Positions 21,495 to 45,900 of a stretch of DNA of 64,000 nucleotides are shown one piece after another. A program made the position numbers and the translations under genes. Source of the DNA: Zootoca vivipara (lineage: Eukaryota). A model generated the notes under the pieces. The model did no database searches and was not told the origin of the DNA. It worked only from the letters and a program-made list of their open reading frames with translations. The DNA is taken from the NCBI RefSeq assembly GCF_963506605.1, contig NC_083278.1, forward strand, positions 67,518,001 through 67,582,000, in the 5' to 3' direction. The first letter of the stretch is position 1, and each line of letters starts with the position of its first letter.

Positions 21495-22173
21495 CCCTAG
21501 CCCAATCTGAAATTACCATGCCTGTTGGGTTAGGGTTGCCAGCTGAGGATCAATTTATGACAACTGGTTTACAACTCTTAAAACATGGGTCCTATCTATG
21601 CATGATTCGGGGTCAGCACTGGGGGAGAACAGTGCTCTTGTTCCCTTACAGAGGCAGAAATGCATCTGGTTGTGCCTTTTCCAGTACTGTACAGAAATAA
21701 AATTACAAGGAAAGCTTCACCTGTTGACACCCTGCCAGGCTCCTAACAACTTGCTTGTGGCATGTTTTGTTTTAGCCCCTCCACCCCATCTGCAAAAGAA
21801 AATACAAACGTGCACATTACACAAATCAACAAAATTAGTTGGTCTCTAAGGTGCTACTGGACAATTTTGCAATTCCTCAGTGAAGCTTCCCGCACACTTG
21901 CATCCTCCATCTTTTGGGCACTTCCACCTTCGAAGCCTCTCTGGAAGCGAAAACGCAGCCTCCCTTCTTCTCAGACCCATCCCTCCTCCCGCCTGTCACG
22001 TGACGACACGCTCAGCCGAGCCCTCCGTGACGAAGGCGCTTGAGGGGGTGGGAGTAGTCCCGCGCAGCCAATGAGAACGCGCGAGGGATTTTCGGGCGGC
22101 GCGAGGCGGCTTAAGGGCCAGGCGTAAGGTGCAACAGGACCAGCGGCCGAAACGGGACCTGGCTGAAGGCAGC

Positions 22174-32901
<10,728 letters not shown>

Positions 32902-33214
32902 TGGAAGTGTTTCGGTAATTCTGTATTAATTTGTTGCATGGCTTCTAATTAAAACTGGAACTGTCTTAACTGCCGCCTCTTCCTTCAATTACTGTGACCA
33001 CATCACTCTCTCAGTTCCATCACTGCATATGCTGTACCAACTTAAAATTACTGGTATTGTGTTGTATATAAACAAGTCATACATACTGAGATCCATAGTC
33101 ACGGGATAAATATGGCTTAAAATAGCCAATGTTCTCTATCACATCAATCCCTCTGCTGGCTGCTGCAGAGAGCACCTTAGTGGGCAAAATCAGTCTCTTA
33201 CTTGACTTCAGGAA

Positions 33215-33433
33215 CAGGTAGGTAGCCGTGTTGGTCTGAGTCGAAGCAAAATAAAAAAATTCCTTCAGTAGCACCTTAAAGACCAACTAAGTTTTTATTT
33301 TGGTATGAGCTTTCGTGTGCATGCACACTTCTTCAGATACAGTGAAGAAGTGTGCATGCACACGAAAGCTCATACCAAAATAAAAACTTAGTTGGTCTTT
33401 AAGGTGCTACTGAAGGAATTTTTTTTTATTTTG
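33215..33433. mobile_element. Penelope-like retroelement terminal fragment arranged as an inverted repeat
   Basis: Arms 33244-33335 and 33343-33436 are reverse complements apart from an A7/T9 run. Flanked by the 14-bp direct repeat CTTGACTTCAGGAA (33201-33214, 33434-33447). The sequence GAAGAAGTGTGCATGCACACGAAAGCTCATACC...TTAGTTGGTCTTTAAGGTGCTACTG matches my recollection of squamate Penelope-like ends. Confidence 0.75.
33303..33340 (-). ncRNA. Minimal type I hammerhead ribozyme motif
   Basis: Minus strand reads GTAT-CTGAAGA-A-GTGTGCATGCACAC-GAAA-GC-TC-ATAC: stem I GTAT/ATAC, core CUGANGA and GAAA, stem II hairpin, palindromic AGCT stem III, UH cleavage site. Confidence 0.7.
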
Positions 33434-33529
33434 CTTGACTTCAGGAAGTTAAGCTGTTGTTTGCCCCACCCAGCACAGAGCTGCGACTTTAGCACTAGGC
33501 ATGACTGCACAGCATTCCTTAGTGTAGAC

Positions 33530-33769
33530 TGCAGGAACGTCCAACAGGTAGATCGTGATCTACCGGTAGATCACCGGCTCCCCCCAAAGAAGCTCAACAA
33601 CTTTGGCTCCCCTAAAAAATCTCAACATTTTAGCCCTTCACCTTCCAAAAACAGGGCTTTCCCGCCTCAGAAAAGCCCAACAACTCTGACCTGAACCCCT
33701 AAAAGGTGGTAGATCACTGCCAGTTTTTAACTGAGTACATCGCAGTCTCTTCGGAGTTGGCCCCCCCTG
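33530..33769. mobile_element. Non-autonomous hAT-like DNA transposon
   Basis: Imperfect TIRs CAGGAACGTCCAAC / GTTGGCCCCCCCTG and near-8-bp TSD GTGTAGAC / GTGTAGAG. Confidence 0.6.
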
Positions 33770-33841: not shown

Positions 33842-33847
33842 TTTATT
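33842..33847 (-). terminator. Probable TCP1 polyadenylation signal
   Basis: Minus-strand AATAAA about 145 nt after the TCP1 stop codon. Confidence 0.65.
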
Positions 33848-33991
33848 GTGGTCTTAAATATTAGAACAAGTATGAGGACACAGCCATTTTTTAATTTTAA
33901 GTAATTAAGCAGAAGTGCAACAGCTTCATTAATTAACACACTTGTACATACAAGACTAGACTTTTACAGGAACAGTTGAATAAAAATGCAT

Positions 33992-36900
33992 TTAGTCTTC
34001 AATTGCTCCAGAATGAACTGCATCTTCATAGCATCCGCCTTTATCACCTTTACTTTCAGGGTGCAGCTTAATAACATCATCGATTCGAAGAATGGTAATT
34101 GCAGCTTCTGTTGCAAACTTCAGACTCTTTGTTTTAACCACAGTAGGCTCGAATACACCAGCCTGCTTGTTGTCACGTGGCTTTCCATTGATTAAATCAA
34201 GACCAATCCTTTAAAAACAAAGTTAATTGTTTTAGATAGGTACATAAACTTTAGACTATTGGTTTAATATTCACAGAGGGCTAACGTTTAATCCCAATTT
34301 TGTAACATTTTTTATACAGCGAGAGCAAGTCAACATTTAGCTCCTGTGCTCTTTCTCAAACTTTTATCCATTTTTGTCAACAATGTACCTGAACAAAGTA
34401 CACCACCAGAAAAATCTACCTTGGCAAAGCTGCTGTTACAGACACAGGGCTTAAGTCATTTTTTAAAGATGATTTGTATTTAATGCTGGCATATTAAGAC
34501 TAGAATTGAATGTTCGATAGCTTTATGTCATGACACCTACCATTTCAAGTTTTTGCGTTCTGGATTCACTTGAGCTTCATTGTGAAATGCCCTGAGTTTT
34601 GCAACAAGATCTATAGCATCTTGAGCAGCATTGACTGCTAAAGTGTTCGGAATAACCAGAAGCGACCTTGCAAATTCTGCAATAGCAAGCTGTTCACGTG
34701 ATCCCTAATTATAAAAGAATTATATATTAGCATTTCAGAACTGTAATGCAAAAGAACAATGCATTATTATCAATCAATAGTCTATTGTGCTAAAAGTTAG
34801 TTTAAGTGATTCCATAGAAGTATTCAAAATAAACCTACCCCTTTTTAAAATCAATCTAACGTTTAAAAATTCCCAATGCATCCTTCAACAATTATTAAGT
34901 GAATTATGGCTGCTCTCAACTGGAAAAAAACAACTCCAAAGCTACAATAAAACAAAGTTCACAGGGAGAAGTGTTTCCAAACATTTATTAACTAGAAACT
35001 TACCATGCTGGTTGCATAATTTTCTAGGTAAATAGAAAGCGCTGCTTCAACTGCGCCACCTCCTGGAACCACAGACTTTGACTCCAATACTCTCTTGACA
35101 ACACAAAGAGCATCATGCAAGGATCGCTCCATTTCATCACACATGAAGTCATTTGCCCCTCGTAATATAATGGCGGCGGTAGTCCGTGCCTTAGTACTGT
35201 TTCACAAAGACAAAGTGAAAGGTCCTTATTCCGGAGTTAGTTATCAAAACGTTTACTAGCTAATCTAACCAACCCTATTTAGCTATGTACGTAGTTAGCA
35301 ACAACTGAATTGTGTCCAGGTTTATCAAGAAAATTCATGGTCTCAAACTAATTACAGAGGACTGAAGATAATCTACCCCACACATATGCAGTAACTGCTC
35401 ACACAATTTAAAAGGCATCATGGCAGCTATCAAACAGGAAATTTCAAAAGATGTAGCAAAATACACTGGTGCCAATACTTTATGCAGGAGAATAATTCTT
35501 ACTTCTTGATTAAGATTAATTCATCATCACAAATTCTTTCTTGAACCACTTCTTCTGCTTGTCCTAGCATTGATGCCTCAAAAGTTTCTTCACCTTCCAG
35601 ATTTGCCAGGGTTGAACACAGAGTGGCTTATAAAAAAACAACACACAAACAAGGCCTTTAGTATGCTTCACAAAAGCCACTTTTATTTTGCCAAACAACC
35701 CCACTCAAATTTGGGTTTTTAAGGTCCAACAAGTGGCAGTAAGCAACGTGTTTCTATATATTTAACTTCAGTACTAACAAGACAAGCAAGCTGTGGTGTT
35801 AAGATTGAACGCTGAGAAGTCTGTAGTTACCTCCAGAAGCCTTAGCAATGCGTTTAAGATCTCTTTTTAGCACTCTGCGTACTCCCATGGCACCAGCATC
35901 CGCAAAGTATTTCAGACACATATCATCAATTCCACCAGTAGTCAAAACAACATTTGCGCCTGTGGCCAAAATCTTATGAATTTTCTCTTTAGTGATGTCA
36001 GACTCTCTGCATGAGAGAGTAGGTATGCATTAGTTAAACAGAAACAAACTCAAATATGAAATTAGTGGTCAAAAAGATAAAATACTCAATAAAACTAGCT
36101 GTGATTTAATATGCGATCTATCTTCCCAATTATATTAAAACCCATTTCATATAAAATGCTTTTCAGACATGCCTACAAAGCCTCTGCTAAAGATCTTTAA
36201 AGATCAAAAGTAGCATTTTGAAATGGTTTAGACGCCTGTGCAATTGACGTGATCATAATGCCCAGTCCCATATAAAAGCTTTGCAGATATATCTCAGATT
36301 AACTGCAGTTTCCAAACCATCTTCAAAGACAGCTCTACATACTAGACAATTGTCTCATTTGAAGGTTACCAGAACATGCATCACCACTATCACAGACAGG
36401 TTAATTAATAAAGTATACAACTTTTCCCATCCAAACCTAGCTGTCTAGCAATAGACAGAAGCAGAAGCCTGTGATATAGCTCAGTTAGTAAAGCTAAGAG
36501 TTCTATGCTCTCAAGGTTATGAGTTTAAGCCCCACATGGGACAAAAATATTCCTACATTGCAGGGAGTTGGACCTTTCCAACTCTACCATTCCATGATGC
36601 AAAGGTTGCTGGACCCTGCAAAAAGATGGAGCTACATCAGATGTAGCCCTACTGCAGCCTTTGTAAGGTGCCCACTAGGATGTTACGGGCACAGAGATAA
36701 TAAAAGTTGTAGTCAAAACGTCTGGAAGGCACCAGGTTGGAGAAGGCGATTCTACTGTTTTCAGTTATGGCACACAGTTACAAAGATTATGAAGCTCCTT
36801 ATGCAGGTAGATGAGGAAGCAAACTTGTGGGAAGGTAAACTGATTTAATGGATTTCAAATTAGCCGTGAGTTTAGATTCACACGTCAACACTTAATTAAA

Positions 36901-42900: not shown

Positions 42901-45900
42901 TACTCTGTATCCACGGGGCTTCTTTTAAATGACTCATCCTGTATATTTATCCAATTCTGTTTTAAGCCAAACCCTTGTGACCAACAAGTTATGGAAATTA
43001 TTTGAGTACAGTAAATAGAATTATTTCATATATTACAATACAAATTAAAAGATAAGCAAGACAAGTAAGATTAAGTGATTAAAAATATTTGCCATAAGAA
43101 AACAAAAGGCTGCAATCCTATCTACATTTACAAGTAAATCCCTAATGCAATGGCTTCTGAATACATATGCATGGGAATGGGCTGTAAAATATTAAATATT
43201 TACTTATGCTTATTTAACACACATCATTGTTAAAAAGCTAGTGGCCAAATGGCTCCTTAAACCAAGGTTAGTTGCCAAAACAGAATGTCCAGTTGCCATT
43301 TTGGGGCAAGATGGTTCGAAAATCTTATTTTTCAAATGATGGACTGACTGTGATTGTGATTGATTCTCTGTTAAACATCTGGCTAGCTCAGATGACCCCC
43401 TTGAGCTACCGGTAGGTTAAGAACTTTGAGAACTTGACGTTGTTCACTGCTCCTGCTCAAGCTGCACAGAAAAAGCACTTTGGTTACTGAATTTAATTCT
43501 GATTGTGCAAATAAACTATAACTGATGAAATTCTACAGAATGGGGTATTAGTGTGTGAAAACGGTCCGGGTGCAATGATCCCCAGGCATGCACCTCCAGA
43601 TGGAGATGTCAGGCGCCATCCTGGTGCTCAGCCATCTTTACTTGGTCTTAAGTGGCCAATAGCCAGGTACAAAAAGTGCAAATTTTGAACACTGACACAT
43701 TTAAAAGCATGTTTACGGTAACTCAGGATAATTTTATAGACTTACTGGAAGACGTATCTGGGTTGCACAGTGCACTTTTCTCTTAAAAATTACTCATAGA
43801 AAATAGTGTCTACTTACACCAATGTCATCCACCAACATTTTATCCAAGCCAACTGGGCCAAGAGAACTCTTCACAATATTGGCAATGGAAGCAGCAGCCA
43901 TAACTGTTCAGAAAAAGAGATACATTTCCCTCTCAAATGGCGCCAAGAGTTTTTCTTAAAACAACAGGTTATGTGATACAGATGCTACCATATACACACT
44001 TATTTAAATCAAATCCTTTTAGAAAAGTAGTTAATTCTGGTTACGAAAACCAAACTTAATACTTTGTTTAGTATTAACTATAGTAATACTGTACCTCAAT
44101 GTTATTTGTACATGGTTTGAGCGGGGGAACAAGTGTTTTGCCGAGAACCTCTAATATGAATGAGAACCTCCACAAGTAGGCTCCATCCAGTTTTTCACAA
44201 GGAATGGACCAGACAAGCAGAGTTTGTACCGTTTCTCCGAAAATAAGACATACCCATTAAATAAGCCATAGCAGGATTTCTAAGCATTTGCGCAATATAA
44301 GCCATACCCCGAAAATAAGACATAGTGATAGGCACAGTTCTGGAGGGCGCCAAAGAATAAGACATCCCCTGAAAATAAGCCACTGGTTTTTTTTTGAGGA
44401 AACATATAAGACGGTGTCTTATTTTTCGAGAAACACGGGTAATAGCCATTTTCTAGTGTAAGCATAGATCCATTATAACAGTTCCATGCACAGTATGTCT
44501 AAATGTTCTCAGGCTCATGTGCACAGCTTGAACCAGTCCTACAAGCAATTAAGTACATTCGATATCTTTGTAATACTATGTTCTGCCATTTAATATAGGA
44601 GGAAGACAGTGTTCATTCTTCTCCTTCAGACTATGGCAGGCTTTTCTTTATCCCATAAGCATAACCTCTTATTTGGTAATGCAAATAAGTGGCAGTAGAA
44701 TGGGAAGAGTCCAACTTCTATCTGGACACAGATTCTAAATAAACTTGTACCTGAGCTTGGGGGATTAGCTATATATTTTAATTCAATAGATTAAATACAG
44801 TTTATAATGTTATAAATATGCACAATAAGGCTAAAACATGTTTTTAAAACCAATAGAATTTGCTGTATCAAAGATTATAAAGCCACCTCTCACCACAGAT
44901 AAACCAAATGCCTGCATAAACATATCTATGCAAGGTCTTAATGGAGAAGGGAAGACAATGCTGATCAGGGTTTTTAAGTTCCCCTCTACTTGTTACATCA
45001 TCTACCAATACTTGGGATTTTATGTAAAATGAGAAAAACACAGGTAACTTTTAGCTTAAAACTATATTCACTAGCCTAATCCTATAGTCACTAATGATTT
45101 TTAAAAAATAATAACCTATTCAGCAGTTTATGATTATAACACTTCTTAAAAGAAAATGTGGTTTCAACGATGTCGTGCAAGATAACACTAGTACAGATTT
45201 TAAATGACATTATTTTGAACTAATGGAATTAGATCAACTGATCACAAGTTAAGATTCTCTTGTGAGCATTACACTCTGACAGAACTCTTAACCCATGGAA
45301 CCATGTGAAATTGAAAATTACATTCAAATTTAATGTTTTAATTACAAATTAGCATCAATAATTATTCTTTTTGTGGTTCTCCTTTGAAATTCCTGAAACG
45401 TATTTTTTCAATCGATTAAATTTCCTACTGGAATAGGAGTGTGCTGAGAATACCGATATCATGGCATGGTTTCTCATAAATCCTCAATGCATCCAAATCG
45501 GGCTTAGCAATGTGGCTAACCAAAGAGCCAAGCTTCGAAAGCGAGCCCTGCCATATAAGGAAGCGAACTGCGCCCCCCCCCGTCATTGAGCCGCCAATTC
45601 TCGCGGGTGCTGACGGAAAAGGAGCGGCTCCATTGCATATGGAAGAAGCGAATTATTCCACGAACGCGAGACCCGAGGCGTGGCTAGAGCAAAGAGGACT
45701 TGATCAAGTAGCTCTGCTTGATCCTCCCGACAGATCTCTCCCCCTCTCTAGAGGCTCAAGAAAGGGATGCCTGTGGGCCATCTCAACGTTCGCCGCCTTG
45801 CCTAAAGGCCGCCCCGTTCTCTGCGCGCCCGTTAAACGCAGGAGAGCCGGTTCCGCCTTACACGCACGCGCGCCCCATCAGCCCGCGGCGCTAGCGGAGG

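Follow-up and report, generated by a model that had tools for sequence, protein, structure and literature searches.

A hammerhead-bearing, head-to-head stub of a Penelope-like element between ACAT2 and TCP1 of Zootoca vivipara is probably a bystander of both 3' ends

Does a hairpin-forming repeat that lies between two genes arranged tail to tail end their transcripts, or does it merely sit there? This question is raised by a stretch of 64,000 nucleotides from Zootoca vivipara (positions 67,518,001 to 67,582,000 of contig NC_083278.1, assembly GCF_963506605.1), which is termed the window and to which all unlabelled coordinates refer. A preliminary description of this window placed a Penelope-derived hairpin between the convergent 3' ends of ACAT2 and TCP1 and proposed that it serves as a bidirectional 3'-end cassette. 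The gene matches confirm the placement. The last coding exon of ACAT2 up to the stop (32734-32901, plus strand) encodes a Thiolase_C domain with acetyl-CoA acetyltransferase 2 as its best PDB match, and RNA depth starts at the edge of this exon. The TCP1 stop is located at 33992-33994 on the minus strand, and one exon farther upstream gives a match to T-complex protein 1 alpha with an E value of 3e-36. A SNORA29 sequence at 44572-44707 is also on the minus strand, which is the TCP1 strand, and we take TCP1 to be its host gene. The two stops are 1,090 nt apart, or 857 nt without the insertion. The left target site duplication (TSD) of the insertion begins 300 nt after the end of the ACAT2 stop at 32901, and the right one is followed after 395 nt by the TCP1 AATAAA, in agreement with the earlier estimates of ~310 and ~400 nt. 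The ATTAAA at 32948-32953 (plus strand) is likely ACAT2's own poly(A) signal, the last RNA depth falling in the bin 32944-32975. As judged from the sequence alone, the AATAAA at 33842-33847 (minus strand) is likely TCP1's own signal, and an AATAAA at 33979-33984 (plus strand), just inside the TCP1 3' UTR, is a candidate distal signal for ACAT2. A further ATTAAA is present near the TCP1 signal at 33890-33895 (minus strand). Three degenerate 24-nt direct copies (75-79%) at 33582-33688, between the insertion and the TCP1 signal, probably represent another old repeat.

The insertion consists of 219 nt between two 14-bp TSDs (33201-33214 and 33434-33447), which are identical at 14/14 positions as described earlier. 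A one-sided tail of 29 nt (33215-33243, minus strand) forms the distal end of the long, element-sense arm and lies outside the hairpin; this sense arm aligns to the parent copy L035 up to its position 4837. The tail is followed by the left arm of 92 nt (33244-33335, minus strand), which is in element sense and is a piece of the parent's pLTR upstream of its first ATG, by a 7-nt loop (33336-33342), which is the head-to-head junction and contains two parts of a hammerhead, C3 and the 5' side of stem I, and by the inverted, shorter arm (33343-33433, plus strand). As paired, the right arm extends to 33436 (94 nt), and its last three nucleotides (CTT) are common to the arm and the TSD. The sense strand of the element is the minus, or TCP1, strand. 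The loop coincides with a 4-nt microhomology (TTCA/TGAA) that is also present in L035. The only difference between the two arms is a 2-nt length change in an A run, with zero substitutions, and the predicted fold has a free energy of -175 kcal/mol (z -24.7; 0/200 shuffles equally good). The near-perfect inverted repeat of ~92 bp with a 7-nt loop thus stands as first described. The exact TSD and the lack of arm substitutions are consistent with the earlier view that the insertion is young, although they do not date it. Contigs of runs X16 and X19 cross the left TSD and match the first 24 nt of the element without a difference, where the bridging criterion is 31 nt; they are suggestive of a filled site but fall short of proving fixation, and one of them may be the assembly's own sample. 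The same repeat family has left a short, older piece at 21831-21868, which matches at 87% over 39 nt.

The Penelope origin of the stub is borne out by its match to a parent copy that retains coding sequence. The region 33215-33342 is 97.7% identical to the pLTR at L035:4709-4836 and 97-98% identical to a second pLTR at L035:7709-7836; these pLTRs are 3.0 kb apart and form a partial tandem. The 128 nt of sense sequence in the stub correspond only to the part of L035 upstream of its first ATG. The L035 copy is frameshifted, and its open reading frame was translated in pieces. L035:6228-7520 encodes an RVT_1 domain (E 8e-7, 29.3 bits, just below the cut-off of 29.6) and then a C-terminal GIY-YIG domain (E 3e-5), which is above the cut-off. 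The translation also contains CNKPRCQLC, which is a CX4CxxC linker, and CQQC ahead of YIG. A CX2-5CxxC linker is described in PMC8557442 as defining Neptune/Nematis-type Penelope-like elements (PLEs) and as absent from Poseidon. The parent is therefore assigned to the Neptune/Nematis type and not to Poseidon, the linker separating it from Poseidon but not from Nematis. A reverse transcriptase followed by a C-terminal GIY-YIG domain, the linker, tandem pLTRs, and an inverted, 5'-truncated copy with a one-sided tail and a TSD are all found. On the basis of domains, linker and pLTRs, as distinct from a tree, the stub is taken to derive from an EN+ PLE of the Neptune type.

The minus-strand sequence at 33303-33340 was identified by a motif scan as an intact, minimal type-I hammerhead with a predicted cut between 33307 and 33306. 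This motif consists of a 4-bp stem I, a CUGAAGA core, one unpaired base, a palindromic stem II, GAAA and a palindromic stem III. Core, stems I and II, the unpaired base before stem II, G10.1-C11.1 and the palindromic 15.2-16.2 are as in PLE hammerheads. The plus-strand copy in the shorter arm has G at 33342 instead of C3 and has no stem I partner. As first proposed, the insertion bears a hammerhead, which is intact on the TCP1 strand only. The same C3G change abolished cleavage by the ribozyme of the Anolis carolinensis Poseidon element PAc, according to PMC11167929. The minimal type-I metazoan PLE hammerheads described in PMC4209133 likewise have a short stem I, an unpaired base before stem II, G10.1-C11.1 and a palindromic minimal stem III, but their stem II has 7-8 bp, whereas that of the present motif has 5-6 bp. 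Close pairs of hammerheads on opposite strands, and minimal type-I hammerheads in turtle and snakes, are also described there. An Rfam scan of the window at the gathering score detected no hammerhead, only SNORA29; this absence is not taken as evidence, because minimal hammerheads may not be modelled in Rfam.

The stub is one of very many related sequences in this genome. The 39-nt hammerhead word has 13,052 exact occurrences, or one per 110 kb (control 0), the 25-nt tail word has 14,634, and the short head-to-head junction at the hammerhead is found at 874 sites (control 0). A DNA search of the same genome gave 972 candidates, of which the 40 that were scored all show 92-100% identity across most of the query, and head-to-head arms are visible at 30/30 fetched loci. 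For comparison, ~9,000 variable minimal hammerheads are reported for Xenopus in PMC4209133. The number of identical copies in Z. vivipara exceeds this count and suggests a large burst that is recent or still under way, whereas PMC4209133 stresses variability, except for the invading Penelope of D. virilis. The locus L038:1319-3240 contains four head-to-tail units of 598 nt, each with a pLTR and an intact hammerhead; this retrozyme-like tandem could form a dimeric ribozyme.

The first 50 of the 874 junctions, which are those listed for contig C1, were surveyed by aligning both arms to L035, the window copy making 51. The end of the long arm falls at parent positions 4836-4851 in 45/51 copies and that of the short arm at 4797-4812, ~35 nt away, in 40/51. 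An exact flanking direct repeat of 10-16 nt is present in 34/50 copies. At a site with three alleles, the long arms have A in 26, T in 15 and C in 9 copies (n=50), and the two arms agree in 43 of the 44 copies in which both are aligned. When only A and T copies are considered, the arms agree in 37/37, against 56% expected from independent templates. Similarly, the arms diverge by 2.3% within a copy and by 4.3% between copies. At L093 and L007, the arms carry discordant subfamily alleles, as would be expected if two templates had been used or if conversion had followed. Classification of the stub as a class II MITE was rejected, because the tail is one-sided, the TSD is variable in length (mostly 10-16 nt) and the junction is variable. 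The combination of tail, inverted arm and TSD recurs across genome copies, in support of the inverted-copy Penelope anatomy noted earlier, and it is given in PMC8557442 as a published form of PLE insertion.

These patterns may be explained as follows. The protein of the element would cut both target strands 14 nt apart, and at each cut end a copy of the same uncleaved RNA would be primed, starting at one or the other of two sites ~30-35 nt apart, the spacing of which would give the one-sided tail. Synthesis of both copies would halt a short way upstream of the hammerhead, at what is probably the 5' end of the RNA, and a short microhomology would serve to join the copies head to head. For the Anolis element, PMC11167929 reports cleavage and extension of both target strands, two initiation sites of reverse transcription with the interval between them forming the tail, and uncleaved RNA as the main template. 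The present stub resembles PAc in that both strands of the target would be open to cleavage and extension, its ends ~30-35 nt apart match the two tail-defining start sites, copies retain an uncleaved hammerhead, and its plus-strand copy carries the C3G change. It differs from PAc, as described, in that its parent has the CX2-5CxxC linker and its tail ends ~10 nt ahead of the first ATG that L035 shows; the start sites of PAc, in contrast, are inside the ORF. Another close parallel is the EN+ PLE insertion Pen2a_Av of Adineta (PMC3846280; PMC8557442 Fig. 2), which shares the head-to-head inverted copy, the enclosure of the whole unit within a TSD, the hammerhead in the pLTR, an inverted arm shorter by ~30-37 nt and a one-sided tail of ~30 nt. 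Unlike Pen2a_Av, the present insertion is a stub without any ORF, has 128 nt of sense sequence and a TSD of 14 bp rather than 8-10 bp, and belongs to a form with hundreds of copies. Self-priming is preferred for the head-to-head junction in PMC3846280, which describes the same anatomy. The concordance between arms (43/44; 37/37) fits one template per insertion, and fold-back copying or a single master that dominates in each cell would account for it as well. Two-site priming on a single RNA is favoured, since the clustering of short-arm ends is then explained. Among the 31 arms that keep stem I, 13 have a G before it, whereas 11/11 longer parent-type contexts have T. When the rows were read by eye, seven of these 13 G residues could derive from the opposite arm and six (L052, L054, L070, L073, L077 and L089), located directly before stem I, could not be explained by either arm. 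Reverse transcriptases can copy an RNA cap, and the extra G is possibly such a copy, marking the transcript start.

The preliminary description located two AATAAA hexamers on each strand of the element in addition to the ATTAAA at 32948 and the AATAAA at 33842, and all of them are at the positions given there. Those on the ACAT2 (plus) strand are at 33250-33255 and 33379-33384, and those on the TCP1 (minus) strand are at 33294-33299, the mirror of the hexamer at 33379, and at 33425-33430, the mirror of that at 33250. The same words occur on both strands because the mirror symmetry of the palindrome puts them there automatically. AATAAA is present on both strands in 36/50 unselected copies, and at least two per strand are present in 13/50; the hexamer after the hammerhead (here 33379-33384) is AATATA or AATACA in 24/50. 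The two-strand hexamers are therefore a generic by-product, and the palindrome together with these copies rules out a special meaning for them. Once the hairpin is complete, pairing is predicted for each of the four hexamers (mean unpaired probability 0.002-0.105). The hexamer at 33250 is predicted to be transiently unpaired (0.31-0.93) in shorter, nascent RNAs. By inspection, without a scoring model, the first hexamer of either strand has a U-rich stretch downstream of it, so that the AAUAAA with a downstream U/GU-rich element of a poly(A) site is present. The U-rich stretch and the unpaired state of the 33250 hexamer in nascent RNA make its use as a back-up signal physically possible.

RNA reads and DNA contigs were analysed over 32400-33342, the ACAT2 side of the locus, in 4 of 23 runs, namely the RNA runs X21 and X22, of each of which ~6% was read, and two DNA-like contig sets. 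Depth over the ACAT2 exon peaks at 15 in X21 and 7 in X22, starts at the exon edge, fades through the exon and the short UTR, and is already ~2 at the end of the exon. The last depth is in bin 32880-32911 for X21 and in bin 32944-32975 for X22. Depth is zero in 7/7 bins over 32976-33199, the 224 nt before the element, in 2/2 runs, though overall depth is thin. This pattern fits a 3' end just after the ATTAAA at 32948. Thus, the proposal that the element terminates ACAT2 is not supported, and an end of ACAT2 at 32948-32953, which was named beforehand as the outcome speaking against a cassette, is what is seen on the ACAT2 side, on thin depth. The bidirectional cassette as a whole fares no better, the hexamer pairs being generic (36/50) and predicted to be paired, and each gene having its own upstream hexamer. 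The thin depth is compatible with a minor, long ACAT2 isoform at no more than ~11% as bounded from the peak depth, or ~30-60% from the depth at the exon end (hand estimate). At 32741, all ACAT2 RNA reads (16/16 and 7/7) have a T>C change that converts Val to Ala in the last exon and is absent from the reference and two DNA runs; it is likely a population allele. Because the RNA animals differ from the reference at this position, they may lack the insertion. A downstream insertion is not expected to create read-through upstream of itself.

Within the arms, depth is 250-2,600, and 92-94% of the aligned RNA reads continue into unlike sequence, so that they stem from other copies. In these family-wide reads, T>C changes at 33276, 33277 and 33288 occur at 1.5-2.9% in X21 and 5.7-13.3% in X22, as compared with 0-0.4% of the DNA contig depth. 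They are strongly biased to one read orientation and read as A>G on the element-sense strand, one of them in a UAG context. They are compatible with A-to-I editing of some family copies, the locus and strand of which are not assignable. Massive editing of lizard Penelope, with >40,000 edited sites, is reported in PMC5625713. Like that Penelope and the palindromic frog Harbinger described there, the present hairpin is a self-folding repeat that needs no partner as an ADAR target; unlike the lizard Penelope with edited sites, the present copy is known from genomic sequence, and the family-wide reads are not tied to it.

Taken together, these results argue that the insertion is what a high-copy Neptune-type PLE has left behind, a head-to-head stub of 219 nt with flanking TSDs, which lies in the interval separating the likely poly(A) signals of ACAT2 from those of TCP1 and is probably a neutral passenger there. 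It is a new instance of a known insertion form, and a role in 3'-end formation is unlikely. The hairpin is likely a bystander because the few ACAT2 reads, from two samples, stop >200 bases before it. Mature ACAT2 and TCP1 mRNAs would end before the element, and the hairpin would be transcribed only by polymerase that continues beyond the poly(A) sites. The thin RNA depth and the unspecified tissue weaken this reading. So do the U-rich stretch and the partly unpaired plus-strand hexamer of nascent RNA, which could serve as a signal, and the position itself: the chance for a given 870-nt gap is 0.05% for a short hairpin and 0.8% for an exact hammerhead copy, though the locus was chosen post hoc. 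As ~12 short hairpins are expected by chance within 1 kb of some gene end, assuming 20,000 genes, the location is unusual for one locus and unremarkable for a genome scan. An account that is compatible with the bystander reading, and is possible though doubtful, is that the hairpin is a passive dsRNA substrate: polymerase past either poly(A) site transcribes it and ADAR edits the nascent RNA, the mature mRNAs being unaffected. The three orientation-biased arm sites, which are nearly free of the change in DNA contigs, and the editing of lizard Penelope (PMC5625713) speak for it. Nevertheless, most of these reads belong to other copies, the DNA is not matched to the RNA animals, the orientation of ACAT2 reads differs between the two runs and leaves the strand uncertain, and no read joins the flank of this copy to the hairpin.

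An improbable alternative is a back-up poly(A) cassette, by which a minor share of ACAT2 and/or TCP1 transcripts would skip the native signal and be cleaved after the AATAAA at 33250 or 33430, keeping ACAT2 from reaching the AATAAA at 33979, so that the two 3' ends stay apart. The presence on both strands of a canonical hexamer with a U-rich stretch behind it, the variant ATTAAA that is ACAT2's own signal, the predicted opening of the 33250 hexamer before the second arm is made, and the 3' overlap of mammalian ACAT2 and TCP1 (PMC2151771) would suit such a cassette. It is opposed by the zero depth over 32976-33199 in both RNA runs, by the predicted pairing of the hexamers in the finished hairpin and by their presence on both strands of 36/50 unselected copies. 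In addition, no poly(A)-like loose end occurs among the 12 RNA rows shown, where reads are family-wide and 277 further rows exist over all runs. Copying of the hairpin as a whole between loci, as a self-propagating, non-autonomous unit similar to a MITE or SINE, is highly improbable. The exact junction of the window copy recurs at 7 places, and size and shape are common to hundreds of sites, as such a unit would require; yet junction sequences differ widely among the 50 copies, arm ends vary, one arm has no tail, and the 7 same-junction copies differ in flanks and subfamily alleles. The last observation indicates that the junction in the window was remade rather than inherited. Least credible, with hardly any probability, is that the hammerhead cuts read-through TCP1 RNA as a ribozyme terminator. 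The TCP1 strand has an intact core and intact stems, and the isolated motif is predicted to fold as a hammerhead. Within the hairpin, however, the predicted probabilities of stems I and II are 0.0, the antisense arm is transcribed before the hammerhead, and each strand has a single copy, while minimal hammerhead monomers showed no activity in vitro in PMC4209133 and the Anolis hammerhead required the protein of its element according to PMC11167929. A ribozyme role is therefore considered very unlikely from these models.

The gene pair is the same, and is likewise arranged tail to tail, in mammals, where ACAT2 and TCP1 overlap at their 3' ends (Shintani et al. 1999, via PMC2151771 and PMC5366806). 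Unlike the mammalian pair as described there, the Z. vivipara pair shows no overlap, the ACAT2 reads ending near 32975 in two thin runs, and the insertion is lineage-specific repeat DNA. The adjacency of ACAT2 and TCP1 in a non-mammalian genome favours the scenario of neighbours first, overlap later, of Shintani et al. as cited in PMC2151771. It is conceivable, at a decidedly low probability, that ACAT2 has a tissue-restricted long 3' UTR that extends to 33979 and overlaps that of TCP1 as in mammals, and that the young hairpin truncates it or makes edited dsRNA, in which case filled and empty alleles would form a natural overlap switch. If so, the scar of a retroelement would act as a two-way terminator and would bear on the origin of the textbook ACAT2-TCP1 overlap. 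As found, the insertion matters little, being one stub among hundreds. Its value lies in adding one case from a genome that has undergone a large, recent Penelope burst and in which the ends, junctions and concordance of the arms preserve traces of an insertion mechanism that is still poorly understood.
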